Source: an uncultured Hymenobacter sp.
GTDB lineage: Bacteria > Bacteroidota > Bacteroidia > Cytophagales > Hymenobacteraceae
DNA: 64,000 nt
NCBI GenBank assembly: GCA_964277755.1
Contig: CAXYJY010000043.1
Coordinates: forward strand, 14,237 to 78,236
Reading direction: 5' to 3'
The translations under genes and the position numbers were made by a program. The notes beneath the pieces were generated by a model. It was not told the origin of the DNA and did not search any database. It was given only the letters and a program-made list of their open reading frames with translations. Every line of letters begins with the position of its first letter. Position 1 is the stretch's first letter. Shown one piece after another: positions 4,116 to 35,900 of this stretch.

Positions 4116-4200
4116 CTGTCCTTGCAAGCGCAGCGAAGCAATCGCACCTGTTAAGCCGCGCCGCTCTGGTGCGATTGCTTCGCTGCGCTCGCAAGGACAG
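4116..4200. repeat. GTCC/GTCA-type REP doublet
   Basis: CTGTCCTTGCAAGCGCAGCGAAGCAATCGCACC and inverted arm GGTGCGATTGCTTCGCTGCGCTCGCAAGGACAG. Confidence 0.9.
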
Positions 4201-4206
4201 ACGGTA

Positions 4207-6015
4207 CTAAACCACCAGCTGAAAAAAAGCGCCCGGCCGATTATCCGTCGTTACCTGGCCGCCGAGCTGGGCGCTGAGGGCCAGAATGAGCTGCTGCCCA
4301 AACGAGCCCTCGGTTGCCTGCCACTGGCCAGGTGCGAAGCCGAGGCCGTTGTCCTCCACCTCCAGCAGCAGGCCGTTTGGGCTGGGCGCGCCGAGTAGCA
4401 CCCGCAGCCGGGGCCGGGCCACGCGGGCGTAGGCGTGCTTCATGGCGTTGGTAATTAGCTCATTGATAATGAGGCCCAGCGGTACGGCGCGCTCTACGTC
4501 GAGGGCGGGCAGGTCGAGGGTCAGCGCCAGGTCGAAGGTAGCCTCGTCGAAGCCGTAGGCCAGTAGTAAGTTTTCGAGCAGGGTGGTGAGGTAGGGGCGC
4601 ATATCGACGCGGGCCACATCGGTGGTTTGGTAGAGGTGCTGGTGCAGCAGGCCCATGGCCTCCACGCGCTGCCGGCCCTCGCGCACGGCGCGGGCGGCGG
4701 CGGCATCGGCCAGGCTACCCGACTGCAAATTGAGCAAGCTGCTCACGATGGCCAGGTTGTTTTTGACGCGGTGATTGAGCTCGCGCAGCAAGAGTTCAAG
4801 GCGATTGGCCTGCTCTTGAATACGCTCATTCTTAGCGCTAACGGTTTGGTTGGTAGCGTGCAGCTGGCCGTTGGCGCGGCGCAGGGCGCGGTACTGCCCG
4901 GCGCTGAGGGCCAGCAGGCCGGCCACCAGGGCCAGCCCGCCGCCCAGCGCCCACAGCTGGCGCTGCCGCCGGGTGTTTTCGCGGGCCAGGCCCGCGATGC
5001 GGGTTTGCTGCTGGCTTAGGCGGTAGGCGGCCTCGATGCGGGCCACGGCCTGGGTTTTTTCGAGGCGGTTGAGGCTGTCGTCCACGTCGCGCTTTTCTTC
5101 GAGTAGCCTGATGGCCAGCTGGTAGCGGCCGGCCGCCTGGTAGGCTTGCTCGGCGGCGGCCAGCGAGTTGCTGAGGCGGTGCGGGTCGCCGATGGCGCGG
5201 CCCAGTTGCAGGGCCGTGTCGGCGGTGGCCACGGCGCGGGCGGCCTGGCCCTGCTGCCGGTAGGCCCAGCTGAGCTGGCGGTAGGCGTGCTCCAGGCCGT
5301 TGCGGTTGGCCTGCGCCCGGTGCAGCGCCACCGCCCGCCGAAAGTAGCCGATGGCGGCCGGCAGGTCGTGGTCGAAATCCATGAGCAGCTGGCCGTAGTT
5401 GGCATAGGCCACGCCCAGCACCGAGGGCTGGAGGCGGTAATTGACTTCGAGCGCGATGGCCTGCCGGTAGCACCGGCGGGCCGAATCGGGCTGGTGCAAA
5501 TCGCGGTAGATAACGCCCTGGTTGAGCAGCGCCGCCACCATGCCCGCCGGGTAGCGGGCCTGCCGGGCCGTGGCCAGCGCCAGCTGCGCCTGCGCCAGGC
5601 CCTTGCGCAGCAGCGCGGCCACGCCCTGCGTGTCGGCCATGCGCTTGTAAGTCTGAGCGTTGAGGTTAAGCACGGCCGCTACTCCAGCCGGCCGGTGCTG
5701 GGCTTCAAACAGCGCCTGCGCCCGCTGCCCGTAGATGAAACTGGAATCGAACTCGCCCGCGTTGCGCAGCGCCGTGCCCAGCTGCAAGGCGCTCTGGGCC
5801 ACGCCGTAGCCGTAGCGCAGCCGCTGGCTGGCGCGCAGCAGCTGGCGGTTCAGGGCCAGTGCCGAGTCGTTGTTGCGCAGTAGCAGGCGGCGGCCCAGCG
5901 CTAGTTGCGCTCGTACCTGGGTGGTGTCGGCTAGGCGCGGCTGGCCGGCGGTGGCGGGCCGGGTAGCCAGCGCCAATAGCAGCAGACCAAGCAAAAAGAA
6001 GCGTGCAGCAGCCAC
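4207..6015 (-). CDS. TPR-containing membrane sensor histidine kinase (HisKA_2 type)
   Basis: Signal peptide, TPR-like helices, TM segment, ELNHRVKNNL H-box, ELITNAMKHA N-box, EVEDNGLG. Confidence 0.92.
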   Translation of the reverse strand: MAAARFFLLGLLLLALATRPATAGQPRLADTTQVRAQLALGRRLLLRNNDSALALNRQLLRASQRLRYGYGVAQSALQLGTALRNAGEFDSSFIYGQRAQALFEAQHRPAGVAAVLNLNAQTYKRMADTQGVAALLRKGLAQAQLALATARQARYPAGMVAALLNQGVIYRDLHQPDSARRCYRQAIALEVNYRLQPSVLGVAYANYGQLLMDFDHDLPAAIGYFRRAVALHRAQANRNGLEHAYRQLSWAYRQQGQAARAVATADTALQLGRAIGDPHRLSNSLAAAEQAYQAAGRYQLAIRLLEEKRDVDDSLNRLEKTQAVARIEAAYRLSQQQTRIAGLARENTRRQRQLWALGGGLALVAGLLALSAGQYRALRRANGQLHATNQTVSAKNERIQEQANRLELLLRELNHRVKNNLAIVSSLLNLQSGSLADAAAARAVREGRQRVEAMGLLHQHLYQTTDVARVDMRPYLTTLLENLLLAYGFDEATFDLALTLDLPALDVERAVPLGLIINELITNAMKHAYARVARPRLRVLLGAPSPNGLLLEVEDNGLGFAPGQWQATEGSFGQQLILALSAQLGGQVTTDNRPGAFFQLVV

Positions 6016-6163
6016 GGTTGGAAAAAGCAGGGGAATTAACCGCCCCGCAACGCCGCGAAAGTAGAGCGTTCGCCCAATAGCCCGGTTTCAGGCACTGCCA
6101 ACTACCTCAACGGGTCGGTGAACGACGCTAGGCGGTAAGCCGGGAAACTTACCTAAAACGCCA

Positions 6164-6277
6164 GTCATTGCGAGCGCAGCGAAGCAAACGCACCGGTTGA
6201 GCCGCGCCGTTCGGATTTCGCTCGGATTTCGCTAGGGTTCCGTTTGGGTGCGATTGCTTCGCTGCGCTCGCAATGAC
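6164..6277. repeat. GTCA-type REP doublet; spacer holds 11-bp tandem duplication TCGGATTTCGC x2
   Basis: GTCATTGCGAGCGCAGCGAAGCAA ... TTGCTTCGCTGCGCTCGCAATGAC. Confidence 0.9.
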
Positions 6278-6320
6278 AGGTGCAATTTAATTTAGTTGAA
6301 AATATCTGAGCAGTAATTTG

Positions 6321-7082
6321 TTAACGAAATAAAAACTGCTTCAAAAACGCCTCGCGGTATTGCCGGCCCAACGGCACTACTTGGCCGGCCACGGTGGCCT
6401 CGGCATCGGAAAAGCGCTCAACGCGCTGGATGTTGACCGCAAACGAGCGGTGCACCCGCACCAGCTGCGCGAAGTGCAGGCGCTCGAGCACCGCGCCCAG
6501 CGTGAGGCGCAGGGCGTATTTGCGGGTGGTGGTGCGCAGGGCGGTGTAGGTGTTGTCGGCCTCCAAAAGCAGAATATCGGCCAGCGGAATCCGCACAAAC
6601 TCGTGGTTGTCTTTGATAAAGACGTGGTCGTCGAGCTGGAGGATAGTGTCGCGGGTGAGGGCGTCGGGCGGGGTAGGGGCGGGCGGCGCGGGCGCGGCCG
6701 GGCGGGCTACTGTGTGCAGGGCCAGGGCCAGCGCGGTGCGCAGGCTGGCCGCCGACACGGGCTTGGGCAGGTAGGCGGCGGGCTGGGTAGTGAGGGCGCG
6801 GTCGAGGGTGGGCTGGTCGGCCAGGGCGGTGAGGTAGAGCAGCGGCACCGGGCGCACGGCCAGCAGGCGGCGGGCGGTTTCGATACCATCCCAGGGGCCT
6901 TGCAAATGGATGTCGCAGAGCACGCCCCCGATGCCGGGGTGCCGCTCGAACAACTCCAGCGCCTGCGGGCCGGTACCGGCAATGCCGACCACCTCGTAGC
7001 CTTCGGCGTGCAGGGTGGCGCGCAGGTCGAGGGCCAGCACGGCCTCGTCTTCGATAAGCAGGAGCTGAATAAGAGCGGGCAT
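6321..7082 (-). CDS. LytTR-family response regulator
   Basis: Receiver (IEDE, LCDIHL, YLPKP) plus LytTR domain (EADNTYT, RVHRSFAVN, VPLGRQYR). Confidence 0.93.
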   Translation of the reverse strand: MPALIQLLLIEDEAVLALDLRATLHAEGYEVVGIAGTGPQALELFERHPGIGGVLCDIHLQGPWDGIETARRLLAVRPVPLLYLTALADQPTLDRALTTQPAAYLPKPVSAASLRTALALALHTVARPAAPAPPAPTPPDALTRDTILQLDDHVFIKDNHEFVRIPLADILLLEADNTYTALRTTTRKYALRLTLGAVLERLHFAQLVRVHRSFAVNIQRVERFSDAEATVAGQVVPLGRQYREAFLKQFLFR

Positions 7083-7292
7083 AGACAGGCGGCCAACGGC
7101 GCGCGGCGCGGCCAAAGTTTCCGCGAAGCTACGGCCCCGTGCGGCCTGGCGCGGGGCGCGCTTCGCATACCAGCCGGGGGCCGCTCACTTACCACGGGGC
7201 GGTTTCTACTGCTTTTTGGCGGTGGGGCGGGCGGGACGCGGGCAATTTTAACACCGTAACACGGCTGGTTTTTATCCTGTACTTTCTGAGCT

Positions 7293-8840
7293 ATGTCCCT
7301 ATTTTCTACCCCAGCTGCCGGCCGCTTATTGGCGCTACTTTCGATAAGCTGGCTGGCGGGCGGCGCGGTGGCGCAGGCCCAGCGCGTGGGCATCGGCACC
7401 ACTGCGCCCACCCAGATGCTGGACGTGAACGGCACGCTGCGCGTGCGCGCTGCCGCCGGCAGCGGCGTGGGCCGCCTGCTGGGCGTGGCCGACGACGGCA
7501 CCCTGCAAGCCCAGCCGCCGCTGAGCGATATCACCGCCGCCGCCGCGCCAACGGCCCCGGCCAGCCTAGGCACCGTGGCTACCGAGACCGGGCCCATCGC
7601 GGTAGCGGTGCATCCGGCCGGCACCCGCGTGTTGGTGCTCAACACCACGGTCGGCAGCCTGCAAGCCTTCGACGTGAGCGGCAACGGCCGGCCCCTGAGC
7701 CAGGGCAGCGCGCCCACCGGCGGCGGGGCGGCGGCGCTGGCCCTGGACCCGGCCGGCACCCGCGCCTACGTGCTGAACGCGGCCGACAACACCCTGCAAG
7801 CCTACGCGCTGGGCAGCGGCGGCGTGCCCGTCAGCCTGGGTACCGTGGCTACCGGCAGCTCGCCCAAAGCCCTGGCTTTGAACGCGGCCGGCACCCGCCT
7901 CTACGTGCTGACGGGCTCGGGCCGCAGCTTGCAGGCCTTCGATGCTACCATCGGCGTGCCCACCAGCCTGGGCGCGGGCACTACTACCATCGCGCAGCCC
8001 AACGCACTGGCGTTGAACCCGGCCGGCACCCGCGCCTACGTGCTGAGCAGCAGCCAGCTCGAAACCTTCGACCTGAGCGGTGCCGCGCCCGCGAGCCTGG
8101 GGCCGGTGGCCACCAGCGGCGGGCTGGGTTTGGCGGTGAATGCGGCCGGCACCCGTGCCTACGTCAGCACCGGCGGCGGGGGGCAGCTCCAGGTATTTGA
8201 CCTCAGCGGCAATTTGCCCGCCAGCCTGGGCGCGGTGGCGGCGGGCACTGCGCCACAGGCGCTGGCCCTGGCCCCGGCCGGCACCCGCGCCTACGGGCTC
8301 GATTTTGCGGGCAGCGCGCTGCAAACCTTCGACCTTGGCGGCGCGGGGCTGCCCGCCGGCCTGGGCGCTACGCCCACCGGCAGCCTGCCGCAGGCGCTGG
8401 CGTTGAACCCGGCCGGCACCCGCGCCTACGTGGTCAATCTGGGCAATAACACTTTGCAAACCTACCAGGTGGGCACCGACCCGCCGCTGCTGGGCGTGGG
8501 CAGCAATGGCGCGCTGGCCGCCCTCGACCCGGCCACGCTGCCGGGGGCCAGCCTGGTGCCCCAGGCCTACGGCTCGGTGGGCGGCGATGGCACCGACTAC
8601 GGCGCGGCGGGCGGCTACACTATCGCGCACCTCGGCGCGGGCCGGTACCGCCTCAGCTTCGCGGCCGGGCCGCTCAGCACCGCCAACCTAGCCAATGCCG
8701 TGGTGACGGCCACGCTGTTTGGCGGCAGCGCGGGGCTGCTGAGCTACAACGGCGGCGTGGGCTACCTCGATGTGTTCACCTTCACGGCCGCCAGCGCGGC
8801 GGCCGACCGGGGGTTCAGCTTCACCCTGTACCTGCCCTAG
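7293..8840 (+). CDS. Secreted 7-bladed YVTN-like beta-propeller protein, paralog 1
   Basis: Signal peptide ending AQAQ, VGIGTTAPTQMLDVNG motif, 7 xxPAGTRAYV repeats, conserved C-terminal domain ending DRGFSFTLYLP. Confidence 0.85.
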   Translation: MSLFSTPAAGRLLALLSISWLAGGAVAQAQRVGIGTTAPTQMLDVNGTLRVRAAAGSGVGRLLGVADDGTLQAQPPLSDITAAAAPTAPASLGTVATETGPIAVAVHPAGTRVLVLNTTVGSLQAFDVSGNGRPLSQGSAPTGGGAAALALDPAGTRAYVLNAADNTLQAYALGSGGVPVSLGTVATGSSPKALALNAAGTRLYVLTGSGRSLQAFDATIGVPTSLGAGTTTIAQPNALALNPAGTRAYVLSSSQLETFDLSGAAPASLGPVATSGGLGLAVNAAGTRAYVSTGGGGQLQVFDLSGNLPASLGAVAAGTAPQALALAPAGTRAYGLDFAGSALQTFDLGGAGLPAGLGATPTGSLPQALALNPAGTRAYVVNLGNNTLQTYQVGTDPPLLGVGSNGALAALDPATLPGASLVPQAYGSVGGDGTDYGAAGGYTIAHLGAGRYRLSFAAGPLSTANLANAVVTATLFGGSAGLLSYNGGVGYLDVFTFTAASAAADRGFSFTLYLP

Positions 8841-8861
8841 CCGGGCTTCGCTCGCTGGCTT

Positions 8862-10412
8862 ATGCCGTCTTTTCGAAAACAACTTAGCTGCCTGCTGCTA
8901 GCCGCGCTGCTCGGGCCTGGGCCACTGGCCCAGGCCCAAAACGTGGGCATTGGCACCAGCGCGCCTACTCAGGCGCTGGATGTGAACGGGCAGGCGCGGG
9001 TGCGGGCCTTGCAGGCCGACGCGGCCGGCCAGCTAGTAGGCCTGGCGGCCGATGGCACCCTGCAAGCCCAGTCGCCCGTCTTCAGCACGGCCGCGCCGGC
9101 GTTTTTGCCCACGCCGCCCGCCGACCTGGGGGCGGTGGCCGCCAGCAATACGCCGCAGGCCATCGTGCTTGACCCAGCCCACCCACGCGCCTACGTGATA
9201 GGTCGCACCAGCAGCATAGACGGGCAGCTGGATGCCTACGACCTGGGGCTGAATGGCTTGCCCGTGCGGCGGGGCACGGTGCCCACGGGCCGGTCGCCGC
9301 GGGCGCTGGCGGTGCATCCGGCCGGCACCCGGCTGTACGTTACGAATACGACCGATAACACGCTGCAAACCTTTGATATCAGCGGCGGCGGCCTGCCCGC
9401 GAGCCTGGGCACGGTGCCCACGGGCCGCAATCCGGTGGCGCTAGCAGTAAACCCGACCGGCACCCGGCTGTACGTCACGAACCTCGACGATAATCGCTTG
9501 CAGACCTACGATATAACCGGCGGCGGCCTGCCCGTGAGTTTGGGCGTGGTGCGGACGGGCCGCAACCCGGTGGCGCTGGCGGTGCCCCCGGCCGGCACCC
9601 GCGCCTATGTGCTCAACTACTCGGGTAACACGCTCCAGGCCTTTGACCTGAGCGGCAGCTTGCCCGTGAGCCTCGACTCGATAGGCACCACCGGCAGCCC
9701 CACGGCCCTGGCGGTGAATACGGCCGGCACCCGTGCCTACGTGGTATCGCCCTACAATAACCTGGACACCTATAACCTGAATGGTAGTGCCTTGGTCAAA
9801 ATCGGCAGTGCCTACGTAGCTTTTTCGGCGCTTGGCGTGGTGCTCGACCCGACCGGGGCCCGCGCCTACGTGCTGCAGTATGCGCCGGGCAACCTGCGCA
9901 TCTATGACCTGAATGGGGGCGGCATCCCCATCAGCCTGGCGAATACGGGCCCACTGGCCCGCCCCACGGCGATGGCGATAAACCCGGCTGGCACCCGCGC
10001 TTACATAACTACCGTCGCCAGCACGCTCTACACCTTCGACCTTGGTAGCAGCCCCCGGCCGCTGGCTGTGAGCGCGGGCGGCGCAGCGGCTAGTCTGGGC
10101 GCGACGCCGCTGCCGGGGGCCGGGCGGCTGCCAGCCGCCTACGGCGCGGTGGGTAGCGGCGGTGCGGCGCTTGGGGCGGCCAGCGGCTTCGCGGTAACGC
10201 ACCCGGCCACGGGCGTCTATCGCCTCAGCTTCACGAGCAGCCCGCTCAGTACCACCGACCTAAATCAGGCGGCCACGGTAGCTACGCTGGCCGGCGTAGC
10301 GCCGGGTAGCGTGAGCTACCGCACCGGCCGCGGCTACGTGGAGGTGCTCACCTACGCGCCTGGTGGCACGGCCTTCGACCGGGGCTTCACCTTCAGCGTG
10401 ACGTTGCCTTAA
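8862..10412 (+). CDS. Secreted 7-bladed beta-propeller protein, paralog 2
   Basis: Same architecture: AQAQNVGIGTSAPTQALDVNG, 7 blades, DRGFTFSVTLP. Confidence 0.85.
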   Translation: MPSFRKQLSCLLLAALLGPGPLAQAQNVGIGTSAPTQALDVNGQARVRALQADAAGQLVGLAADGTLQAQSPVFSTAAPAFLPTPPADLGAVAASNTPQAIVLDPAHPRAYVIGRTSSIDGQLDAYDLGLNGLPVRRGTVPTGRSPRALAVHPAGTRLYVTNTTDNTLQTFDISGGGLPASLGTVPTGRNPVALAVNPTGTRLYVTNLDDNRLQTYDITGGGLPVSLGVVRTGRNPVALAVPPAGTRAYVLNYSGNTLQAFDLSGSLPVSLDSIGTTGSPTALAVNTAGTRAYVVSPYNNLDTYNLNGSALVKIGSAYVAFSALGVVLDPTGARAYVLQYAPGNLRIYDLNGGGIPISLANTGPLARPTAMAINPAGTRAYITTVASTLYTFDLGSSPRPLAVSAGGAAASLGATPLPGAGRLPAAYGAVGSGGAALGAASGFAVTHPATGVYRLSFTSSPLSTTDLNQAATVATLAGVAPGSVSYRTGRGYVEVLTYAPGGTAFDRGFTFSVTLP

Positions 10413-10430
10413 CTTATTACTTCCGTGATT

Positions 10431-11996
10431 ATGACCAGAACGCTACTCGCCGGCTACCTGCTGCTGGCCGCGCTACTCGGCACCGGGCCGCTGGCCCAGG
10501 CCCAGAACGTGGGCATCGGCACCAGCGCGCCTACCCAGGCGCTGGACGTGAACGGGCAGGCGCGGGTGCGCGGCCTGGCCGGCGACGCGGCCGGCCGCCT
10601 GCTGGGTTTGGCCGCCGATGGCACCCTGCAAGCCCAGCCGCCCGCCTTCAGCGCGGCAGCGCCGGCGGCCTTCGCGCAGCCCACCGGGCAGGCGGCGGTA
10701 GCTACCAGCGGCGCGCCGGTAGGGGTGGTGGTAAACGCGGCCGGCACCCGCGCCTTTGCCATCAACAATGGCGGAAACGCGCTGGAAACGTTTGACTTGA
10801 CCGGCGCAGGTCCGCCCCGCAAGATTGGTAGCCTGGCGCTAAACTATTACGGCCCGCAGGCGCTGAAACTAAATGCAGCCAGCACCCGGCTCTACGTTTT
10901 GCTAGATGTGGTGCTGTACACGTTCGACGTTAGCAGCGGCTTGCCGGTGCAGCTGGCGACCACCACCGTGGGCGCTACCGCGAGGGATATAGCATTGGAC
11001 GCAGCGGCCACTACCGCGTATGTACTGTCCGGCGGCCTTTTCTTTCTGAGCATTCCCTTGACTAGCAACGGCGTGCCGAGTAGTGCGCCGGGTAGCTACG
11101 TCTTTCTGAGCACGCCCCCCAATGGCACGATGTACAAGCTGGCGATGAACGCGGCGGGCACCCGCGCCTACATGCTGGTAGTCGGGGTGCGACCGGGACC
11201 TAATCAACTGTATCAATACAATATAAGCAGTGCCGGCTCCGCCACGATTGCGGGCAGCGTGCCGGTGAGCGGCCAGCCCGAGGCGCTGGTGCTGAATGCG
11301 GCCGGCACCCGCGCCTACGTCGTGAGCTCGGGTAGCAACACCCTGCAAACCTTCGACCTTGGCGGCGCAGGCCTGCCCACCAGCCTGGGCACCGTGCCCA
11401 CCGGCCAGAGCCCCGCCGCCGTGGCCCTGGACGCGGCCGGCACCCGCCTCTACGTGCCCAACACCGGCGATAATACCTTGCAGACCTACGACCTTGTCAT
11501 GGGCTTGCCCGTGTCCCGCGCCGTCAGCCCCACGGGCAGCGCGCCGCGGGCCGTGGCCACCGCGCCCACCGGCACGCAGCTCTACGTAGCCAACAGCGGC
11601 GATAATACGCTCCAGATTTTCGACCAGCAAAACCAGCCCCGGCCGCTGGCCGTGGGTGCCACCGGCGCGGCGGGCAGCCTGGGCGCGGGGGCACTGCCGG
11701 GGGTGGGGCGGCTGCCCGCCGCCTACGGCACGGTGAGCAGCGGCGGCGCGGCGGCCGGGTCGGGCGGGGCCTTCTCGGTAACGCATTCAACCACGGGCGT
11801 GTACCGGCTCAGCTTCACCGATAATCCGCTCAGCACTACCGACCTCAATCAGGCGGCGGTAGTGGCCACGCTGGCCAGCGCCGCGCCGGGCAGCGTGAGC
11901 TACCGCACCGGCCGCGGCTACGTGGAAGTGCTCACCTACGCGCCGGGCGGCGCGGCCACTGACCGCGATTTCACCTTCAGCGTGACGATACCCTAG
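10431..11996 (+). CDS. Secreted 7-bladed beta-propeller protein, paralog 3
   Basis: Same architecture; ends DRDFTFSVTIP; blades 2-4 more divergent. Confidence 0.85.
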   Translation: MTRTLLAGYLLLAALLGTGPLAQAQNVGIGTSAPTQALDVNGQARVRGLAGDAAGRLLGLAADGTLQAQPPAFSAAAPAAFAQPTGQAAVATSGAPVGVVVNAAGTRAFAINNGGNALETFDLTGAGPPRKIGSLALNYYGPQALKLNAASTRLYVLLDVVLYTFDVSSGLPVQLATTTVGATARDIALDAAATTAYVLSGGLFFLSIPLTSNGVPSSAPGSYVFLSTPPNGTMYKLAMNAAGTRAYMLVVGVRPGPNQLYQYNISSAGSATIAGSVPVSGQPEALVLNAAGTRAYVVSSGSNTLQTFDLGGAGLPTSLGTVPTGQSPAAVALDAAGTRLYVPNTGDNTLQTYDLVMGLPVSRAVSPTGSAPRAVATAPTGTQLYVANSGDNTLQIFDQQNQPRPLAVGATGAAGSLGAGALPGVGRLPAAYGTVSSGGAAAGSGGAFSVTHSTTGVYRLSFTDNPLSTTDLNQAAVVATLASAAPGSVSYRTGRGYVEVLTYAPGGAATDRDFTFSVTIP

Positions 11997-12073
11997 CTTT
12001 TGCGGCGGCCAGAAACCCGTCTTTTTCGCATTTGGCGGCCCTGGCGGCCGGCCTTTTTTTCTGCCTGAATTTT

Positions 12074-13603
12074 ATGCGTAACCTACTACTCGCTACTCTG
12101 CTAACGGCCACGCTGCTCGGCGCGGGCCAGGTGGCCCCGGCTCAGAATGTGGGCATCGGCACCAGCGCGCCCACCCAGACGCTGGACATCAACGGCAACC
12201 TGCGCGTGCAGGGCCTGGCGGGCAGCGGCCCGCACCTGCTAAGTACCACCGCCGATGGCACTTTGCAAGTGCAGCCGCCGCTACTCGGGGCCACCCTCAC
12301 GGCCGCTACTGCGCCCCTGAGTCTGGGTACCGTGCCCACCGGCAATGCGCCCGCCGCCCTGGCGTTGAACCCAGCCGGCACCCGCGCCTACGTGCTCAAT
12401 TCGTCGGATAATACCCTGCAAGTGTACGACCTGAGCAGCGGCGCGCTGCCCGTGAGTATGGGTACCGTGGGCACCAGCCCGTCGCCCTCGGCCCTGGCGG
12501 TGAACGCGGCCGGCACCCGCGCCTACGTCATCAACAACGACCAGACCGGCAAGCTCGATGTGTATGACATCAGCCGGGCGGGCCTGCCCACCAGCCTGGG
12601 CACCGTGGGGGCCAGCGCCTACGCCACGGGGCTGGCGCTGAACGCGGCCGGCACCCGCGCCTACGTAGGAACCAACGCGGCAGCGGTGCAGGTGTTCGAC
12701 CTCAGCGGTACGGGTCTGCCGGCTTTGCTGGGCAGCACGGCGGCGGGCGGCACGCCGCGCGCGCTGGCCACCAATCCGCTCGCCGACCGCCTGTACGTGG
12801 TTACCAGCGCCAATACCTTGCAGACCTACAGCACCAGCCCCGGCGTGCCCACCAGCCTGGGCACCGTGGCCACCGGCCAGAGCCCCGCCGCCGTGGCCGT
12901 AAACGCGGCCGGCACCCGCGCCTACGTGCTGAGCGCCACCGATGCCAGCCTGCGCGCCTACGACCTGAGCGGCGGCAGCGTGCCCACGCTGCTGGGCACG
13001 GCCACTACCGACGCCGCGCCCTCGGCCGTGGCCGTGTACCCGGCCGGCGGCCGGGTGCTGGTAGTGCATAATAGCCTCGTCGGGGCCACGCTGCGCAGCT
13101 ACGACGTGAGCGGCAGCACGCCCGCCAGCCTGGGCAGCGTGGCGCTGGCTGGCCTGTCGCGCGCGGTGGCCGTGAATGCCGCCGGCACCCGCGCCTACGC
13201 ACTGGCCGGCAATGCCTTGCAAACCTTCGACCTCGGCGGCGGGCCGCGGGTGGCGGTGGTCAATGCCGATGGCTCGCTAGGCAGCCTCGACCCCGCCCAG
13301 CTGCCCGGCTACGGGCGGCGGCCGGTGGCGCTGGGCTCGGTGGGCAGCGCGGGCACGCTCTACGCCACTACCGGCAACTATGCCGTGGCGCGCCAGAGCA
13401 CCGGCAGCTACCGCCTCACCTTTTCGCCCGCCAGCGGGCTGAGCACCCAGGATTTGACTACTGCCACCGTGGCAGCTACCCTCTTCAACTCGCCCGGCCT
13501 AGTAAGCTGCCGCCCCAATACGGGCTACGTGGAAATTTTCACCTATGACCCCACTGGCACGGCCGCCGACCGGGGCTTCAGCTTCAGCCTGACGCTGCCG
13601 TAG
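12074..13603 (+). CDS. Secreted 7-bladed beta-propeller protein, paralog 4
   Basis: Same architecture; AQNVGIGTSAPTQTLDING, ends DRGFSFSLTLP. Confidence 0.85.
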   Translation: MRNLLLATLLTATLLGAGQVAPAQNVGIGTSAPTQTLDINGNLRVQGLAGSGPHLLSTTADGTLQVQPPLLGATLTAATAPLSLGTVPTGNAPAALALNPAGTRAYVLNSSDNTLQVYDLSSGALPVSMGTVGTSPSPSALAVNAAGTRAYVINNDQTGKLDVYDISRAGLPTSLGTVGASAYATGLALNAAGTRAYVGTNAAAVQVFDLSGTGLPALLGSTAAGGTPRALATNPLADRLYVVTSANTLQTYSTSPGVPTSLGTVATGQSPAAVAVNAAGTRAYVLSATDASLRAYDLSGGSVPTLLGTATTDAAPSAVAVYPAGGRVLVVHNSLVGATLRSYDVSGSTPASLGSVALAGLSRAVAVNAAGTRAYALAGNALQTFDLGGGPRVAVVNADGSLGSLDPAQLPGYGRRPVALGSVGSAGTLYATTGNYAVARQSTGSYRLTFSPASGLSTQDLTTATVAATLFNSPGLVSCRPNTGYVEIFTYDPTGTAADRGFSFSLTLP

Positions 13604-13644
13604 GGCGGGACGGCATCAGTTTTCTTCTGGCAAAAATTATCGCT

Positions 13645-15162
13645 ATGAAACAGCTCTTTACCCCTGGCCGGCTGACGCAACGCCATTTGCATCAGTCCCT
13701 GGCCCTGCTGCTAGCCCTGCTGGCCGCCCCGGCCGCCGCCCAGACCCTGACGGCCACCAGCGGCACCGCCCTCACGGTGCAGAGCGGGGCGGTGCTCTAC
13801 GTAGAGGGCGGCCTGCAAACCGCCACCGGCGCTACCCTCACCAACGCCGGCACCGTGCAGCTCACCGGCGATTTTACCAACGCTGGCACGCTGGCCTCGG
13901 CGGGCACGCTGCTCTTTGGCGGCAGCCAGGACCAGACATTTGCGCCCGGCACGGCCAGCGTGGCCCACCTCACCGTGGCCAATACCGGCACGGCGGGCAG
14001 CAATCGCCTCTTCGTCTCCGCCGACCTCACGGTAAATAATGTGCTGACGCTGAGCCAGGGCCTGCTGCGCACCCAGGGCAGCGCGGGTGGCCCAGTGTTT
14101 ACGCTGGCGCTGCCCGTGGGCGGGCAGGTGGCGGGCGAGGCCCCCGGCCGCTACGTGCAGGGCCGCCTGCAAGTAGCACGCACGGCCGTGAGTGGTACCA
14201 ATATGTTCGATTTCTACAGCGGCCTGACCCTAAACCCCAACGGCCAGAACCTGGGCGGCGTGACCGTGACCCGCACCGCCGGCCTACAACAAGCTGGCAC
14301 GAGCTACGGCCAAAACGGCACCAATAAAGGCATCGACCGGGTGTGGCAGGTAGTGACGGAATTGCCCCTTAACCCGGCCAATCCCGCCGCCGTGGCCCTG
14401 AGCTGGGTCAGCGACAACGACAACGGCCTGAACCCCGCCGCGCCCGCCCAGCTCTGGCGGGCCGACCAGGCCAGCGGCCCCTGGGTGGCGCAGGGCGCGC
14501 CGGCTACCCCCGGCAGCAGCGCGGGCATCCGCACGCTGGCGGGCAGCGTGGCGCAGTTGGGCACGCTCACCGTGAGCGGCGTCAGCGCGCCGCTGCCGGT
14601 AACGCTTACCAGCTTCACGGCCAAGCCGCTGGGGGCGGATGCGCTTTTGAAATGGACGACCGCCTCGGAGCGCAACAACGACCACTTCGAGGTAGAAGCC
14701 AGCGCCGACGGGCAGCAGTTTCAGCGCATTGGCACGGTGGCCGGGCACGGTACTACCGCCCAAACCCACAGCTACCAGCTCACCGACCCGGCCATTGCCC
14801 GCTACGCCGCCGACCCGGTGTACTACCGCCTGCGCCAGGTAGACCTCGACGGCACCGCCAGCTACTCGCCGGTGCGCGCCGTGCGGGTGGCTGGCCTGGC
14901 TGATTTTGCCGCCCAGCTCTATCCTAATCCCGCCCGCGGCGGCGAAGTATCCAGCCTGCTCATTCGCACCACCGCGCCCGGCCTCGCCCGTTGGGAATTG
15001 CTCGATGCCCTCGGCCGCACCCTGGCCCGCCAGGAAACGGTGCTGGCCGCCGGGGCCACCACGCTGCCACTGGCGGCAGCTGGGGCGCTGGCTACCGGCG
15101 TGTACGTGGTGCGCATGCAGCAGGGCACGCAGCATAGCACGTTGAAGCTGGTGAAGGAGTAG
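13645..15162 (+). CDS. T9SS type A sorting-domain surface protein (adhesin-like)
   Basis: Signal peptide; LPVTLTSFTAK...WTTASERNNDHFEVE Ig-like module; LYPNP...LATGVYVVR...KLVKE CTD. Confidence 0.88.
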   Translation: MKQLFTPGRLTQRHLHQSLALLLALLAAPAAAQTLTATSGTALTVQSGAVLYVEGGLQTATGATLTNAGTVQLTGDFTNAGTLASAGTLLFGGSQDQTFAPGTASVAHLTVANTGTAGSNRLFVSADLTVNNVLTLSQGLLRTQGSAGGPVFTLALPVGGQVAGEAPGRYVQGRLQVARTAVSGTNMFDFYSGLTLNPNGQNLGGVTVTRTAGLQQAGTSYGQNGTNKGIDRVWQVVTELPLNPANPAAVALSWVSDNDNGLNPAAPAQLWRADQASGPWVAQGAPATPGSSAGIRTLAGSVAQLGTLTVSGVSAPLPVTLTSFTAKPLGADALLKWTTASERNNDHFEVEASADGQQFQRIGTVAGHGTTAQTHSYQLTDPAIARYAADPVYYRLRQVDLDGTASYSPVRAVRVAGLADFAAQLYPNPARGGEVSSLLIRTTAPGLARWELLDALGRTLARQETVLAAGATTLPLAAAGALATGVYVVRMQQGTQHSTLKLVKE

Positions 15163-15378: not shown

Positions 15379-16944
15379 CTACTGCACCAGCAATTTGCCC
15401 ACGCGCACGCGCCCCCCAGCCTCCAGCTGCACCAGGTACAAGCCCGCCGCCAGCTCTTGCAGCGGCAGCGGTACCTGGCGCGGGCCGGCCGGCTGCGCCT
15501 GATTAGTAAGCACGCGCACCAAGCGGCCGTTCTGGTCGAGCAGGCGCAAGCTCACGGGGCCAGCTTTTTCAAGGGTGAAGCTGGCGGTGGCGGAACCTAG
15601 CTCGGCGGGGTTGGGATGGAGGAGAAAGTCGTCGTCGGCCGCCGTGCTCACGGGCACTACGGCGCGGGTGGCCAGCGCCACGCTCTCATCGCCAGGCAGG
15701 TAGGGTACGATGTCGAAGTAGCCGAGCAGCATCTCGTCGGTGGTGTTTTCGCCCCACTGCACCTGCTGGGGTGGCGAGTTGGGCTGGCGCGGGTTGCTGG
15801 CGGTGTTGTCGTAGGTTACGTCGGCTTCGAGGCGGGCGCCGGCCGGTATTTTCTGCATGTTCAGGAAGCGGTAGTTGCCCTGCCAGCGGAAATTCCAGGA
15901 GTCGATTTTGGCCAGCTTGATGGTATCGCCGTTGGGCTTCACAGCCCAGATTTTCCACTTCTTGGCCAGCAAGTGCGAGTGCGGCAGCACCGAGAGCACG
16001 CTCACATTCTGCGGCACCGTCAGGCTGAAATGGAAGGTCTTGACCTGGTTGGCCGGAATCACGAACGGGCCGTTGGCGAGGCCGCTCCAGGGCTGGATGG
16101 CGGGCAGCGTCTGCACGTAGCGCGCCACCGGCTGGCGGCTGTAGAAGATGTTGAGCACCGACGAATCGGTCTGGGCCACGCTGGTGGGGCCATAGTGCAC
16201 CTGCACCAGCAGGCGGGCGTTTTTATAGAGCTTTTTGCCCAGACCGGTGGGGTAGAAGCGCGCCTGAGCGCCCGGCACCCAGCCCGCGAAGTTGTCCTCG
16301 ACGGTGGTAAAGCCGAAGCCGCCGAAGCTAGTGTAGCCGTAGCCGGGCGAAGCCGCGTCGAGCGCCGCGCCCTGGTTGGTGGTGTCGATGCCAATGATGG
16401 AATGGTGCACCAGGCTCTTGTTGCCGGGCCGGAACTCAATGGCCGACACGTCCTTATTGGCGGGCAGGGTCACGGGTAGCACAAAGACGCGGTACAAATC
16501 CTGGTTGTTGCCGGGGATGGTAAATTTCTGCGCCATCGGCACTACCAGGTCGGGCGTGCCGAGCTGCGAGCCGCTCGGGAAGGTGGGCACGGGCGGGGCC
16601 AGCGCGGGGTTGCCCTGCGGCATCCCGCCATCAACCCAATTCTTGATAAGCATGACCTCGGCGGTGCTCAGTACGTTCTCGTCGAGGTAGTGGCGGTAGT
16701 TGGGGTCGGGCTTCCAAGGTGGCATGTAGCCCGAGCCCGTCACGGCCTTGATAGTGAGGCCCCGGCTGGCTACGTCGGAGTAACTCAGCAGCGAAAACGG
16801 CGCTACCTCGCCTGGCCGGTGGCAGCGCGCGCAGTGGTTGTAGATGAGTGGCGCGATGTGCTCGCTGAAGTTGGGCGTGGTCTGGGCACGGCCGGGCAGG
16901 ACCAGGGCCAGCACCGCCAGCAGGAAGAATACTTGTTTCAGCAT
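15379..16944 (-). CDS. T9SS-secreted copper type II (PHM/DBH-like) monooxygenase-domain protein with monoheme cytochrome c motif
   Basis: CARCH motif; LVHHS, QVHYG, LPHSHL, TDEML copper-ligand pattern; LHPNP...GLYLV...KLLVQ CTD. Confidence 0.82.
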   Translation of the reverse strand: MLKQVFFLLAVLALVLPGRAQTTPNFSEHIAPLIYNHCARCHRPGEVAPFSLLSYSDVASRGLTIKAVTGSGYMPPWKPDPNYRHYLDENVLSTAEVMLIKNWVDGGMPQGNPALAPPVPTFPSGSQLGTPDLVVPMAQKFTIPGNNQDLYRVFVLPVTLPANKDVSAIEFRPGNKSLVHHSIIGIDTTNQGAALDAASPGYGYTSFGGFGFTTVEDNFAGWVPGAQARFYPTGLGKKLYKNARLLVQVHYGPTSVAQTDSSVLNIFYSRQPVARYVQTLPAIQPWSGLANGPFVIPANQVKTFHFSLTVPQNVSVLSVLPHSHLLAKKWKIWAVKPNGDTIKLAKIDSWNFRWQGNYRFLNMQKIPAGARLEADVTYDNTASNPRQPNSPPQQVQWGENTTDEMLLGYFDIVPYLPGDESVALATRAVVPVSTAADDDFLLHPNPAELGSATASFTLEKAGPVSLRLLDQNGRLVRVLTNQAQPAGPRQVPLPLQELAAGLYLVQLEAGGRVRVGKLLVQ

Positions 16945-29070: not shown

Positions 29071-29165
29071 TGTCCTTGCGAGCGCAGCGAAGCAATCGCA
29101 CCAGAGCTGGGCGGCTGAATGGCGCACTCAGCAGGTGCGATTGCTTCGCTGCGCTCGCAAGGGCA
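29071..29165. repeat. GTCC-type REP doublet (inverted relative of 4116 copy)
   Basis: TGTCCTTGCGAGCGCAGCGAAGCAATCGCACC ... GGTGCGATTGCTTCGCTGCGCTCGCAAGGGCA. Confidence 0.9.
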
Positions 29166-31645: not shown

Positions 31646-32794
31646 TTACTCGTGAGCCACGCGAATTATTTGCGTAGCGCCGCCCTGGCGCACCGCGAGC
31701 AGGTACAGGCCCGCTGGCAGCGCCGCCACGTCGGGCATAGCCATGGTGCTGGCCCCGGCTGGCACCGTGGCGTTGTGCTGGCGCACCACGCGGCCTACAG
31801 CGTCGTGCAGCGTCAGCTGGAGCGGGCCGGCTTGCTGGGTAGTTAAGCTAATAGTAAGCCGATTGCTAAAGGGCACAGGGGCGGCCTCGACGCTGAAGCC
31901 AGCGGCCCGGCCGCCCGCAGTGGCCAAGGGCGTGGCCTCCAGAATCATAATGTCATCGACAAACAGGCTCGACGCGCTGGCCGGGCTGGTCGCATGAAAC
32001 CCCACAAAGTAAATGCCACTGGTCGGCGGTGTAAAGCGCAGTACCTGGCCCGCCCCCACCAAAGCATACGTAGTATTGGTAATGGCGGAATTAGTAAACA
32101 GCAGCTGGCTTTGCCCAGCCGGCGTGGCTGCCGGGCCGGCTTTCACTTCCAGCGCCTGGGGGGCCGTGCCGGCCAGCGCCCGGTAGCTGAACATGAGCTG
32201 GTACGTCTTACTGGCCTGCATCGCCAGGTCGGTGGTGAAAAACCAGTCGTCGGCCGCCTGCGTAGCGCTGCCAGTATACTGCATCACGTTGGCCGGCGAC
32301 TTGGCATACGTGGAGGCCACGTTGGCCCAGCCGTGCCCGTCGTTGTTGGCGTCGAGCACGCTATAGTTCATGGGCAAAGTAGGTGCGCTGGTATTATCAA
32401 ACGTTTCAAGATAAGGCCAGGCCGTAACAGGGTAGGACCGGGTCGTAAAAGTGAGGCCGCACGTTTGCGCGCTTTGGCTGCCCGGGCTACACGTATTGTA
32501 GGCACACACCCAATAAGTTGTATTCGGCACAAGGCCCGGCAGCGTCACGGGCAGACTGGTGCTGCTATAGACGATTGCAAGGACAGGAGGTACGCCTAGG
32601 GGAGCATACATTATATGGTAAGCAGTAGCGTTGGCTGGCCCGGTGAGAGACACTGTGGCGCTAGACATAGTAATATTGAAAGCCGTCAGGCTGGTCGGGG
32701 CCGGGCAGGTGGTTTGGGCCTGGGCGAGCAGGCTCGTACCAAACATCAGCCAGATAGCCAACCAGAAGCGATAAAGCGAGTAGCAGTTTGCCAT
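31646..32794 (-). CDS. T9SS type A protein with FN3 and cleaved-adhesin/choice-of-anchor-J-like domains
   Basis: CPAPTSLTA FN3; YLETFD...DANNDGHGW...ADDWFFT; PVPFSN...AGLYLL CTD. Confidence 0.85.
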   Translation of the reverse strand: MANCYSLYRFWLAIWLMFGTSLLAQAQTTCPAPTSLTAFNITMSSATVSLTGPANATAYHIMYAPLGVPPVLAIVYSSTSLPVTLPGLVPNTTYWVCAYNTCSPGSQSAQTCGLTFTTRSYPVTAWPYLETFDNTSAPTLPMNYSVLDANNDGHGWANVASTYAKSPANVMQYTGSATQAADDWFFTTDLAMQASKTYQLMFSYRALAGTAPQALEVKAGPAATPAGQSQLLFTNSAITNTTYALVGAGQVLRFTPPTSGIYFVGFHATSPASASSLFVDDIMILEATPLATAGGRAAGFSVEAAPVPFSNRLTISLTTQQAGPLQLTLHDAVGRVVRQHNATVPAGASTMAMPDVAALPAGLYLLAVRQGGATQIIRVAHE

Positions 32795-32872
32795 AGAGCA
32801 GGGGAAAGAGCCTTGGAAAATTGGTAAGTAGAAGCAAGATACTTGAATACCTGTAAGTAGTTGACTTTTTGC

Positions 32873-32906
32873 AAAAAAAAACGCCTTCCATTGCGGGAAG
32901 GCGTTT
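32873..32906 (-). terminator. Intrinsic terminator after Omp85-family gene
   Basis: A9-CGCCTTCC...GGAAGGCG-TTT. Confidence 0.8.
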
Positions 32907-32928
32907 AAAGTCAGACTAAGAGCAAGGC

Positions 32929-35900
32929 CTAAAAGTCGTGTCCCAGCGTGAGATAGGGCTTGGGGCCGGTGCGCGTGTAGTTCTCCTCGCCCCAGGCCAG
33001 GTCAAACTTGGTGTAGAAGCCCAGCATGGTAGTGCGCACGCCCACGCCGTAGCCGATGAGCAGCGGGTTTCGGAAGTTGATGACCGTGCCCGAGAAGAAA
33101 GTATTATTCTTGAATGCCACCGTGTTGTTAGAGTTACTTTCGCTGAACGGATTGCCGCCCGAATAAGCCGTGCCGGCATCCACGAAGCCCGTGAACTGCA
33201 AATTGCGGAAGAAGCCTGAGTAGATGGGCCGGCGCGATAGATACTGCACGATGGGAAAGCGCAACTCACTGTTGAAGAGTACGTAGCTGCGGCCAGTGCG
33301 TTTGCTCAGGTCAAAGCCCCGCAGGTTGGTCACGAACTGCTGCGTGAAGAGGCTCGTGGGGTCGGGCGTAGGCGTCAGCAACTGCTGGTCGGCGTACTTC
33401 TGAAACAGCCAGTTGTCCATACCGCCGAGGCGGAAGGTCTGAGCATTGGGCCCAAAGAAGGTGCCGAAGCTGGCTCGGTTGGCCCACACCAGTTGGCGAT
33501 GCACCTTCTGGTAGTGGCGCAGGTCAATGTAAAACTTGCCGAAGTTGCCCTGCTTGTTACCAAGCTGGTAATCTTGCAGAATACCCATTTTGAGGCGGGT
33601 GCCCACCAGCATATTCACGCCCGTGGCCCGCGAGTTGTCAAACACCAACTCGGCGTTGTAGCCCAAGTAGTTCACGCTGTTGTCGAGTACGGTGCTGGCG
33701 TCGCCGGTCTGGGTGCGCGACATGGTTTCGAACAGCGGACCGCCGCGCAGGCTCAGGTTATGGGTGAAGGGGTAGGCGATGGTGGGCGCTACCTGGTGGC
33801 GGCCGTAGCGCGTGAGGCCAGGGCTATTTGATTGCGTATTAAAGAAATATGCCTGCTTGCGATACGTGATACCCCAGTCGAGGCGGTGCGTGAGGTTGGT
33901 GTAGGACAGGCTGATGTTGCTGGTGCGCAAGTCGAGCTGCCCAAACACGTTGGCCTGAATGCGCTGGTTCTCAAACGCATCCGACAAATTGGCCTGGAGC
34001 GACACGCCAAAGCCCAGCAGCGGGTCCACGGCGATGCCCGTCAGCAGGTTGTCGGCCATAAAGCGCGTGTCGTAGCGGTAGGGGCCGGCTAGGGCGGGCG
34101 CGGCGGGCTTAGTGGCTACCGGCGTCGCGGCCTTCACCCCGCGCCGGGGCCGCACCGGGATGGCCGGGTCGTCGTCTTCCTCAAACTGGTAGTTGTTGGG
34201 ATTCACCTTGTTGCTGCCCCGGCGCTTGGCCGACGAGGCCGGCACGCCGTTGTCGGGATTGGCCGGCGCGGGGGCCGGCTGGGTGGCCACGGGCGCGGTG
34301 GCTTTCACGGGCATTGGCGCGGGCTGCGAGCGAGCCTCCAGTATCTGCTGGCGCGATGTCTTACCCAAAAACATCTCGGTGGGCAGCTCATACTTGGGGT
34401 AGAGGTAGAGCAGGTCGCGGGCCTGCACCGAGGCTACCAGCGCCAGCGCCTGGCTGGTAGCATTGTAGTCAAAGTCCTGAACGTTAGACGAAAAATTGGT
34501 AACCGGCTGGCGCTGCCCCGTGCGGCGCGAGTAGCGGTACACGCTGCGCACCCCGCTTTCCTCCCCCAGATACAGAATCTCATCATCTGAAATCGGCCGG
34601 GGGCGCGTCTCGTTTGAAATGGTGCTCACCAGCGTTTCCACTGGCTTGGCCCGCCCGTCGAGGTGGTACAAGAACAGGTCGTAGTTGTTCACCACGTTCG
34701 GAAACGACGCCGGCCGCGCCCGCCCCGTCGAGTCGAGGTAGCGGTTGGAGCTGAACACGATGGCCTGCCCGCCGGGCAAGAACATGGCCTGCTGGTCGTC
34801 AAACAGGTCGTCGGTCAGCTTTTCGGGGCGGCGGCTGCCGGCTTTCAGCAGGTAAATATCGTTTTGCCCATCCTTGATGGCGCTGAACACGAGCGCCTTG
34901 CCATCGGGCGAGTAGTTCAGGTCGAGTACCTGGTCGTAGGTGTCGAAGATGGTAGTGGGCCGGCTCAGGCGGATGGCCCCGCGCACGCGGCTCAGCAGGC
35001 CGTCGCCGGCCGCGTCGCGCAGGTGCAGGGCCATACGGCCCTGGCTTAGTTCGGCCACGGCCACCTGGCCATTGCCGCGCCAGGCCAGCGCGGGCAGGCG
35101 GCCTTCTATCTGCTGGTCAGGGGTTTTGTAGCCGCCGTGCAGCAGCGTGCGGCGGTGCGAGCCGTCGCGGTTGGCTACTACCACGCGGTAGCGGCCCTGG
35201 TCGTTTACGGCGTAGGCCACCTGCTGCCCGTTGGGGCTGAGTACGGGCTGCGAGAATAGCTCCAGCCCACGGCGGTTGCGCGAGCTGCGGCGGGCATCGT
35301 CGGCCAGCTGCGCGCGGGCCTCGATGGCGGGCTGCTTGTTGAGCTCGCGGTAGTAATTGACCCAGTTGCGCAGAAATACCTTGAACGGCACGTTCAGCGA
35401 CGAGCTGATGCCTACCTCCACGTCGCGCGTAATGCGCGTGAGGTTCAGGATGTTCTGCACCGCGCCGTAGCCGTAGCGCTCGGCCACGTAGTTCCAGATG
35501 CTCTGGCCCGCCAGCTGCGGGTTGCGCACGAAGAAGGGCGCCGTGCGGTTGCCGGTGGGGTACTCGCGCACCATGTCGCGCATGTAGGCATCCATGTCCA
35601 CGCTCCAGCCCTCGGCCGCGTAGGCCGAGGCCCCGCCGATAAACCAGTCGGGTAGTTGCAGCAGGTAGTTGCTTTGCAGCACTTCGCGCAGCGAGCCGCC
35701 GTACATCATGTCATTGAGCAGCACCTGCGTTATCTGCTGGCTCATATCGCGCTTAAAGTCGGTTTGCCGGCCCGTGAAGGCAATTTCGACCTTGCTCATG
35801 CGCGCCAGCTGGGCCTCGCCGCCGTTCACCGAGCTGGGCAGCGGCAAGTTGATGTTGCTCTGGCGCAGGTCCCCCACCGAATTGTAGAGCATCAGCGTGG

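Follow-up and report, generated by a model that had tools for sequence, protein, structure and literature searches.

Why should four tandem genes for exported, phage-tail-fiber-like proteins without a type IX secretion system (T9SS) sorting signal be followed by a single gene whose product carries such a signal in a C-terminal domain (CTD), and why should all five lie opposite a two-component system? The question is raised by a 64,000-nucleotide stretch of DNA from an uncultured Hymenobacter sp. (contig CAXYJY010000043.1, positions 14,237 to 78,236; hereafter the window), in which we refer to the four fiber-like genes as A to D and to the fifth as E. The initial annotation had described a TPR kinase gene and a LytTR regulator gene divergent from five co-oriented, closely packed genes, a layout that open reading frames (ORFs) and Pfam matches confirmed, and had treated the locus as a one-off. 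It appears instead to be one instance of a cassette found across the genus Hymenobacter, composed of a sensor and regulator, a variable slot of one to five genes for Sec-exported, CTD-less, phage-tail-fiber-like proteins, and a terminal E gene. The reading that we favor, and to which we assign a probability of roughly 55%, is that such a cassette is induced through its sensor and that E docks the CTD-less fibers as adhesins. The source was judged from its nearest relatives to be a Hymenobacteraceae bacterium. The studied region has a guanine-plus-cytosine content of 0.65-0.72, the locus occurs in DNA runs from plant metagenomes, and the nearest genome is the metagenome-assembled genome (MAG) GCA_022701825.1 (locus L001), in which A is 84% identical and the kinase, the regulator and the convergent neighbor F are 91-94% identical.

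The tie between E and fiber genes speaks for this reading. The E family comprises more than 585 homologs, of which those with a named source come almost all from Hymenobacter, with several per genome, and E shares 52-68% identity with the listed homologs from beyond the window's own clade. Seven homologs from isolate genomes were sampled blind to their neighbors, and each of the seven proved to be the last gene of a same-strand cluster with one to four fiber genes; the flanks of these clusters were unrelated, and one cluster was plasmid-borne (L028). Precomputed domain assignments for the fiber genes at the sampled loci comprised PF26696 (PTL_trimer), ALK_LTK_GRD, LVIVD or Peptidase_S74. We observed E behind same-strand fiber genes in L027 and the nearest MAG as well, and on metagenome contigs with at least 1.4 kb of upstream sequence the close E gene lay behind fiber genes in 8 of 8 cases. 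Including the window, a close E homolog thus follows at least one same-strand fiber gene at 18 of 18 evaluable loci. A more distant subgroup, at about 40% identity to E, sits directly 5' of fiber genes in H. glaciei, H. negativus, H. cyanobacteriorum and an uncultured Hymenobacter, and the fiber neighbor in H. glaciei shares the C-domain of A-D. One E-like gene 5' of a VGIGT-propeller gene, in the MAG of an uncultured Hymenobacter (L008, 3574-5073), is split over three frames, either as a pseudogene or through assembly errors.

E itself (13645-15162, + strand, 505 amino acids (aa)) begins with a signal peptide, followed by an all-beta N-domain (residues 33-312, 13741-14580), an FN3/Ig-like domain (residues 316-415, 14590-14889) and a T9SS type A CTD (residues 421-505, 14905-15159). 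The CTD scored 33.1 bits against TIGR04183 over residues 425-505 (cut-off 23), which classes E as type A cargo, and only 16.9 bits against Pfam PF18962, under its cut-off. The single CTD-bearing gene described earlier held for the operon, where TIGR04183 matched only E; outside the operon, the convergent F also has a type A CTD. The AlphaFold model of E is confident (mean predicted local distance difference test score (pLDDT) 85.4) and includes the terminal beta-sandwich; profile searches of the PDB returned CTD-level matches only, and PHROGs returned none. Relatives of the E N-domain were also seen in other settings, namely embedded in a much larger protein (L012, 16829-20152) and in two distant E-like genes that stand in tandem with no fiber gene nearby (L043), so the N-domain has uses beyond the fiber cassette.

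These data have to be weighed against the possibility that the genes are co-regulated and their products physically independent, with A-D acting as secreted or periplasmic binders and E as a separate T9SS adhesin, lectin or enzyme, and with neither docking nor piggy-back export. E owns a complete export signal, fiber loci without E occur, and conserved Trp/Asp-rich positions of the N-domain (GIDRxW, W254, D259, W271 and W280) could make a ligand site of its own. However, the position of all 18 close E genes directly beside fiber genes, nearly always last in the cluster and amid unrelated flanks or on a plasmid, is tighter than co-regulation usually gives. E also remains 52-68% identical across the listed cross-species homologs while the neighboring fibers swap, a constancy expected of a part that touches the conserved end of the fibers. 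We consider physical independence to be unlikely.

The fiber slot of the window is occupied by four paralogs on the + strand, A (7293-8840, 515 aa), B (8862-10412, 516 aa), C (10431-11996, 521 aa from its ATG, within an ORF that opens at GTG 10425) and D (12074-13603, 509 aa from its ATG, within an ORF that opens at TTG 12032), the start of D being set by comparison with proteins P0006 and P0008. With starts backed by orthologs, the intergenic gaps from A through E are 21, 18, 77 and 41 nucleotides (nt). Pairwise identity among A-D is 45-48%, and all four follow the single architecture that the initial annotation had recognized: a Sec type I signal peptide leads into a VGIGT module of 44 aa, after which come seven YVTN blades and a C-terminal domain about 100 aa long. 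In B, the VGIGT module spans residues 27-70 (8940-9071) and begins where signal peptidase is predicted to cleave (AQA|QN), the propeller spans residues 71-416 (9072-10109; seven blades of 45-73 bits), and a C-terminal beta-sandwich, which we term the tip, spans residues 417-516 (10110-10409), all on the + strand. Each paralog continues from its signal peptide through AQ/Q into [NR]VGIGTxAPTQxLD[VI]NG, and the C-terminal domain closes with DR[GD]F[ST]F..[LI]P. Where the initial annotation gave AYG in that domain, D reads ALG. The AQA|Q junction agrees with the Q-rule described for signal peptidase I substrates of Bacteroidetes (PMC5837995).

A hidden Markov model (HMM) built from 28 blades found exactly seven significant blades in each of A-D (34-73 bits) and no other match, in line with the earlier count. 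That count does not extend to the whole family: the 564-aa B ortholog of the nearest MAG (L001, 8285-9979) reads as eight AGTRAY-type blades, so the family varies in its number of blades. What looked like an eighth blade within the C-domain (37-41 bits) was rejected as an artefact of iterative HMM inclusion, as the clean 28-blade HMM has no match there. Matches to Pfam Lactonase (PF10282, a seven-bladed propeller; 31.9-42.9 bits against a cut-off of 21.7) and to the YVTN repeat TIGR02276, which passed its cut-off in B and C, class A-D as seven-bladed YVTN/Lactonase propellers. With a profile of A-D, the best solved sequence relative of the propeller was PDB 1L0Q, the YVTN propeller of a Methanosarcina surface-layer protein (E = 3.4e-28). 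No catalytic equivalog was reached, with 6-phosphogluconolactonase scores no higher than 42 bits (cut-off 370). Searches of A-D against Pfam and NCBIfam (E <= 0.01) found no T9SS CTD, their C-terminal domain being a different family, and Pfam found no Peptidase_S74 chaperone. PF26696 is missing from the precomputed Pfam lists of the window proteins and their close relatives P0001-P0009 and is present in those of most fibers next to other E genes; judged from shared sequence, it probably covers the N-domain that reads GIGTxAPDASAxLD..KGLLxPR.

Several observations connect these modules to tail fibers, as the initial annotation had proposed. The Peptidase_S74 chaperone is a hallmark of trimeric phage fibers, and our search with B also met longer Hymenobacter proteins (P0010 and P0034) in which DNLGNHTATQNLNL-type repeats and Peptidase_S74 come after the VGIGT module and propeller. 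The VGIGT N-module and propeller are joined to Peptidase_S74 in P0010, L012 (11723-13186), L023 and L024. In long Hymenobacter fibers a VGIGT...DGTL module lies mid-protein, directly ahead of an LVIVD/YVTN propeller (for example, L024 5783-7849), and Hymenobacter proteins that end in Peptidase_S74 carry the VGIGT module both at their start and internally. The N-module of B weakly matches PHROG 3269, annotated as a tail protein. The AlphaFold model of the tip domain is all-beta and of medium confidence (mean pLDDT 73.6, 78 of 120 residues at 70 or above, residues 1-25 disordered), and a Foldseek search of BFVD with this model returned 36 phage matches at E <= 1e-3 with template modeling (TM) scores of about 0.65, the tightest aligning with a root-mean-square deviation of 1.9-2.5 Å over about 95 residues. 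Many of the matched proteins are annotated as tail fiber or tailspike, among them those of Achromobacter phage Axy24, Syn5, S-TIM5 and Pectobacterium phage Q19. Matches in the PDB were weaker, the tailspikes of phiAB6 (E = 5e-3) and Pam1 being the best. On this model, the tip classes as tail-fiber-type at medium confidence. A profile of the tip found 442 representative proteins and reached the last residues in nearly all matches listed; in 15 sequences that we read, the domain closes modular Bacteroidota-type proteins, mostly behind another VGIGT-type module. Collectively, sequence comparison and fold prediction support the conclusion that A-D are constructed from phage-tail-fiber-like parts.

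The propeller behaves as an exchangeable element within these proteins, which agrees with the earlier proposal of interchangeable propeller-bearing subunits. Proteins P0197, P0199 and P0200, each of 201 aa, consist of a signal peptide, the VGIGT module, a linker and the C-domain, and one 201-aa protein fills the fourth (D) position of a syntenic array, directly 5' of an E homolog (L027). Because such propeller-less versions exist, the propeller can be described as a cassette inserted into a conserved scaffold of N- and C-modules. The same pattern emerged when we compared identity module by module (N-module, propeller and C-domain, in that order). Between B and C of the window, identity was 89%, 36% and 80%. 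Between the window and the nearest MAG, it was 80%, 44% and 83% for B, 84%, 60% and 79% for C, 93%, 82% and 91% for A, and 80%, 84% and 92% for D, while the flanking kinase, regulator and F of the same genome pair stay 91-94% identical. Conserved ends around fast-replaced middles would be the pattern expected of exposed binding modules on a common attachment scaffold, and the propeller is likely the ligand-binding cassette.

The same conserved ends bear on whether A-D might be ordinary periplasmic YVTN/lactonase-type propellers, either enzymes or YncE-like binders, in which the fiber features are mere linkers. A type I signal peptide without a CTD fits that description, A-D do match Pfam Lactonase and NCBIfam YncE and PQQ-associated propeller models, and relatives bear the Joint Genome Institute label "DNA-binding beta-propeller fold protein YncE." Yet the scores for specific families fall far under the curated cut-offs (YncE, for instance, 16-22 bits against 400), and among solved structures the propeller is closest in sequence to a surface-layer protein, not to an enzyme. 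The N- and C-modules, moreover, are better kept than the propeller they would merely link, occur without it, and are common to S74 fibers and to a tail-fiber-type predicted fold. We regard this explanation as quite unlikely.

Upstream of the fiber slot, the sensor histidine kinase gene (4207-6015, - strand) encodes TPR (TPR_12 matched), HisKA_2 (84 bits) and HATPase_c domains by Pfam. As we read its topology, an N-terminal hydrophobic segment is followed by the TPR region (about residues 40-345), one transmembrane helix (about 363-384), HisKA_2 and HATPase_c, an order that predicts a periplasmic location for the TPR part. The response regulator gene (6321-7082, - strand; its ORF extends to 7115, and the ATG at 7082 agrees with orthologs) encodes Response_reg (51.8 bits) and LytTR (56.1 bits) domains, which, with the cognate kinase, make this a LytTR two-component system by Pfam. 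Kinase orthologs adjoin fiber and E genes in L001, L025 and L045, the regulator has orthologs in the same three loci (91% identical in L001), and the TPR-HisKA_2 kinase/LytTR regulator pair is arranged in the same divergent way in H. monticola (L025) and the metagenome locus L045. Sensors or regulators adjoin most fiber-E clusters: besides the TPR-HisKA_2/LytTR pairs of L025 and L045, L023 has a TPR-HisKA_3/GerE pair, L024 and L030 have 7TMR-DISM proteins, and L028 has a hybrid kinase-AraC protein.

About 100 nt 5' of the ATG of A lies a tandem direct repeat, TTCGCATACCA / CTCACTTACCA (7162-7194, + strand, 22 nt start to start), that is a candidate LytTR operator. The usual spacer between LytTR direct repeats is about 12 nt. 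A repeat pair with the consensus of about CTCRCWTACCA, some copies having one mismatch, occupies the regulator-to-fiber intergenic region in the window, L001, L025 and L045, which represent three lineages, with phasings of 22, 22, 21 and 22 nt, respectively; by chance, 0.02 such paired sites are expected per window. AgrA-type LytTR regulators bind two direct repeats 5' of their promoters (PMC4227749). A second exact CTCACTTACCA at 50534 was rejected, being unpaired and inside a coding region; single sites occur at chance level (4 seen against 2.7 expected). Just 3' of the repeats, the T-rich block TTTCTACTGCTTTTT (7203-7217, + strand) varies hardly at all between the window, L001 and L025, with a similar block in L045, and is a possible promoter element judging by this conservation. 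The genes behind the repeat are unrelated between lineages, comprising four propeller fibers in the window, one PTL/glycine-rich fiber in L025 and one 338-aa VGIGT protein in L045, and E comes after the fiber slot in all three. The conserved repeat and the divergent orthologous regulator pair together delineate a regulator-operator-E frame around a swappable fiber slot. These findings support control of A-E by the TPR kinase/LytTR pair, with the regulator probably binding the repeat, and they give substance to the inducibility that the initial annotation had envisaged. A remnant of a prophage or tailocin tail-fiber module, which the tail-fiber-like predicted fold and PHROG matches might suggest, is very improbable, given that A-D carry Sec signal peptides, which are unusual on virion tail fibers, that no annotated virion-structural or lysis genes besides the fiber genes lie within up to 10 kb on either side at 11 gene-called loci, where the only mobile-element genes are transposases in L030 and, on the L028 plasmid, P63C, transposase and resolvase, that housekeeping genes (enolase, glycosyltransferase and redoxin, among others) flank the window cassette, and that a two-component system of its own and a conserved operator-like repeat belong to the cassette.

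In the display reading that we favor, the periplasmic TPR domain of the kinase would pick up an envelope or environmental cue, and the phosphorylated LytTR regulator would then occupy the tandem repeat and turn on A-E. From what is established for signal peptides and sorting domains of this kind, Sec would carry A-D over the inner membrane with cleavage before the glutamine of AQA|Q, and the T9SS would export E. Once beyond the cytoplasm, E would serve the fibers, most probably by acting at the cell surface as a dock or carrier that grips their conserved N-terminal module. The fibers, which may trimerize, would thereby be held at the surface with their variable propellers and tips pointing outward as adhesins, each propeller presumably meeting an external ligand.

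A number of points weigh against this reading. In Bacteroidota, a protein with a type I signal peptide and neither CTD nor lipobox is normally periplasmic or an outer-membrane protein, and type A CTD cargo may be released instead of anchored; surface exit of A-D, trimer formation and the contact between fibers and E are drawn from sequence. The N-domain of E has no informative match, with Foldseek against the PDB returning only partial Ig/FN3/PorU-type alignments (TM score <= 0.24), which is why we deduce the role of E from gene position alone. The conserved linkage to a CTD-bearing partner that the initial annotation had anticipated holds from the side of E, at all 18 loci above, and only in part from the side of the fibers: 6 of 11 fiber-anchored Hymenobacteraceae loci had no E in the sequence examined, several of these contigs being incomplete, and not every fiber would thus need an adjacent E. 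For the most part, E-like proteins that are more distant (160-370 bits) are without a nearby fiber gene, and full-length relatives of the A-D type number only about nine in the search with B, all from one narrow clade. As regards expression, we found no sigma-70-type promoter in the region and, on inspection by eye only, no convincing TAnnTTTG Bacteroidota promoter motif; terminator-like hairpins were about as frequent as chance would give (7 against an expected 5.5), and four plant RNA runs, picked by species label and amounting to about 7.7 billion letters, gave 3 partial reads, which is no evidence either way. Taken together, the interpretation offered by the initial annotation is partly supported, and should A-D prove periplasmic, the finding reduces to an unusual paralog array with a conserved neighbor.

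The surroundings of the cassette contain further features. Its convergent neighbor F (15379-16944, - strand) is a T9SS type A cargo (CTD 29.1 bits) that has a CxxCH heme-type motif (CARCH) close to the N-terminus and weakly matches a copper type II monooxygenase C-domain; at 94% identity in the nearest MAG, it is far better kept than the fiber genes. A third window protein with an E-like CTD (31649-33001, - strand) scored 61.5 bits against the CTD part of the E profile and is without the E N-domain. These two additional CTD proteins within the 64-kb window suggest, from their sequences, an active T9SS. We also noted a palindromic element resembling repetitive extragenic palindromes or miniature inverted-repeat transposable elements, in three copies (4120-4196, 6166-6275 and 29074-29162), whose inverted arms C[AC]TTGC[GA]AGCGCAGCGAAGCAA were seen six times, where chance would give 0. 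The kinase gene lies between two of the copies, one immediately past its stop and the other inside the kinase-regulator gap, which measures 305 nt in the window against about 128 nt in the nearest MAG.

Beyond the window, VGIGT starts are paired with many different C-terminal modules across Bacteroidota. Fibers beside E genes (L025 8326-9966, L024 5783-7849, L029 and L030) carry the ALK/LTK glycine-rich domain PF12810 at 41-54 bits, a domain otherwise known in animal receptor kinases. A 174-aa VGIGT protein of a Chitinophagaceae MAG (L014, 2252-2776) ends in ...LPDLRG..., which we take to be a phage tail-collar-type motif, and a 236-aa VGIGT protein of a Bacteroidia MAG (L019, 9926-10636) has a C-terminus unlike it. 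In Chryseobacterium sp. ERMR1:04 (L016, 9554-15781), four paralogous secreted proteins that start with Q[VI]G[IF]NTxxPKATLDI adjoin several ORFs with LuxR/GerE helix-turn-helix-like C-termini, identified by eye, and lack an E-family gene. Regulated arrays of related N-terminal modules thus seem to exist outside Hymenobacter. At the loci examined there (L014, L016, L019 and L021, covering Chryseobacterium, Chitinophagaceae and Bacteroidia), VGIGT proteins had no E-family neighbor, the sole marginal match to the E HMM being confined to the N-terminus of a protein in L019 (E = 2e-4).

The strict pairing of CTD-less fibers with a T9SS cargo was unexpected, and in the literature searched we found no publication on this fiber-E class, which is not proof of absence. 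Tentatively, the E family as a whole might consist of T9SS-delivered surface docks or carriers for CTD-less tail-fiber-like proteins, a two-partner mode of display with several sensor-controlled cassettes per genome and a recombining fiber slot. If so, the pairing would hint at a display route for proteins that lack a T9SS signal, outside current models of this system, and the cell would command a switchable adhesin repertoire in which phage tail-fiber parts and dedicated sensors are combined and the binding cassette is exchanged between conserved ends. Leaves, soil, ice and air harbor abundant Hymenobacter species, and little has been described of how they attach to surfaces or to other cells. 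The idea can be put to direct test with the 201-aa minimal protein, with the conserved operator-like repeat and in carriers that can be cultivated, such as H. monticola.

Parts of the cassette have counterparts in known systems. FimS/FimR of P. gingivalis is a TPR-sensor kinase system that controls surface appendages, and the TPR region of the window kinase weakly matches the NCBIfam model HK_Porph_FimS (24.7 bits against a cut-off of 600). As in AgrCA-type LytTR systems, a receiver-LytTR regulator lies beside a tandem direct repeat; unlike AgrC, the kinase here is of the HisKA_2 (HWE-like) type, and no peptide-signal genes are present. E shares its signal peptide and type A CTD with T9SS type A cargo of gingipain-type sorting, and differs in a passenger domain with no assigned function. 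To our knowledge, the T9SS has not been established to co-export or dock partners that lack a CTD. Among fibers, Gp45 of Staphylococcus phage phi11 reportedly combines a stem, a five-bladed propeller and a tower, so that A-D would resemble this type of receptor-binding protein in having an N-terminal stem, a beta-propeller and a small C-terminal beta domain, and would differ in having seven YVTN blades instead of five and in being cellular proteins with a signal peptide. The Methanosarcina mazei protein of 1L0Q has, like A-D, a seven-bladed YVTN propeller and is itself an extracellular surface protein; it is archaeal, however, with PKD domains after its propeller and neither a VGIGT module nor a tail-fiber tip.

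The closest characterized analog, as opposed to a demonstrated relative, is the mosaic adhesive trimer (MAT) fiber family of Bdellovibrio bacteriovorus. MAT fibers have a signal peptide, a conserved N-domain and swappable tips of S74 and non-S74 type, the latter with a beta-sandwich in place of S74, and their surface location and trimer structures were established by experiment (PMC10769870). Like A-D, they are cell-encoded, Sec-exported, tail-fiber-like proteins with multiple paralogs and a conserved module right after the signal peptide. The MAT capping-loop motif V-G-G/N-pi-x-x-P-x-x-x-L (PMC10769870) is similar to VGIGTxAPTQxL of A-D, which is one residue longer between G and P. The MAT N-domain, by contrast, measures about 130 aa, the module here 44 aa and that of PTL_trimer-type relatives about 80 aa, and homology between the MAT N-domain and the 44-aa module, compared by description, is unlikely. 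MAT fibers also belong to a different phylum and come without a propeller, a dedicated two-component system or a conserved T9SS partner gene, and their trimers have been seen by experiment, whereas A-D are known from genes and predicted folds alone. The MAT N-domain has been proposed to bind an as yet unidentified cell-surface element (PMC10769870), and if E does dock the fibers of the Hymenobacter cassette, the E family would be a candidate for the kind of surface receptor that this proposal postulates.

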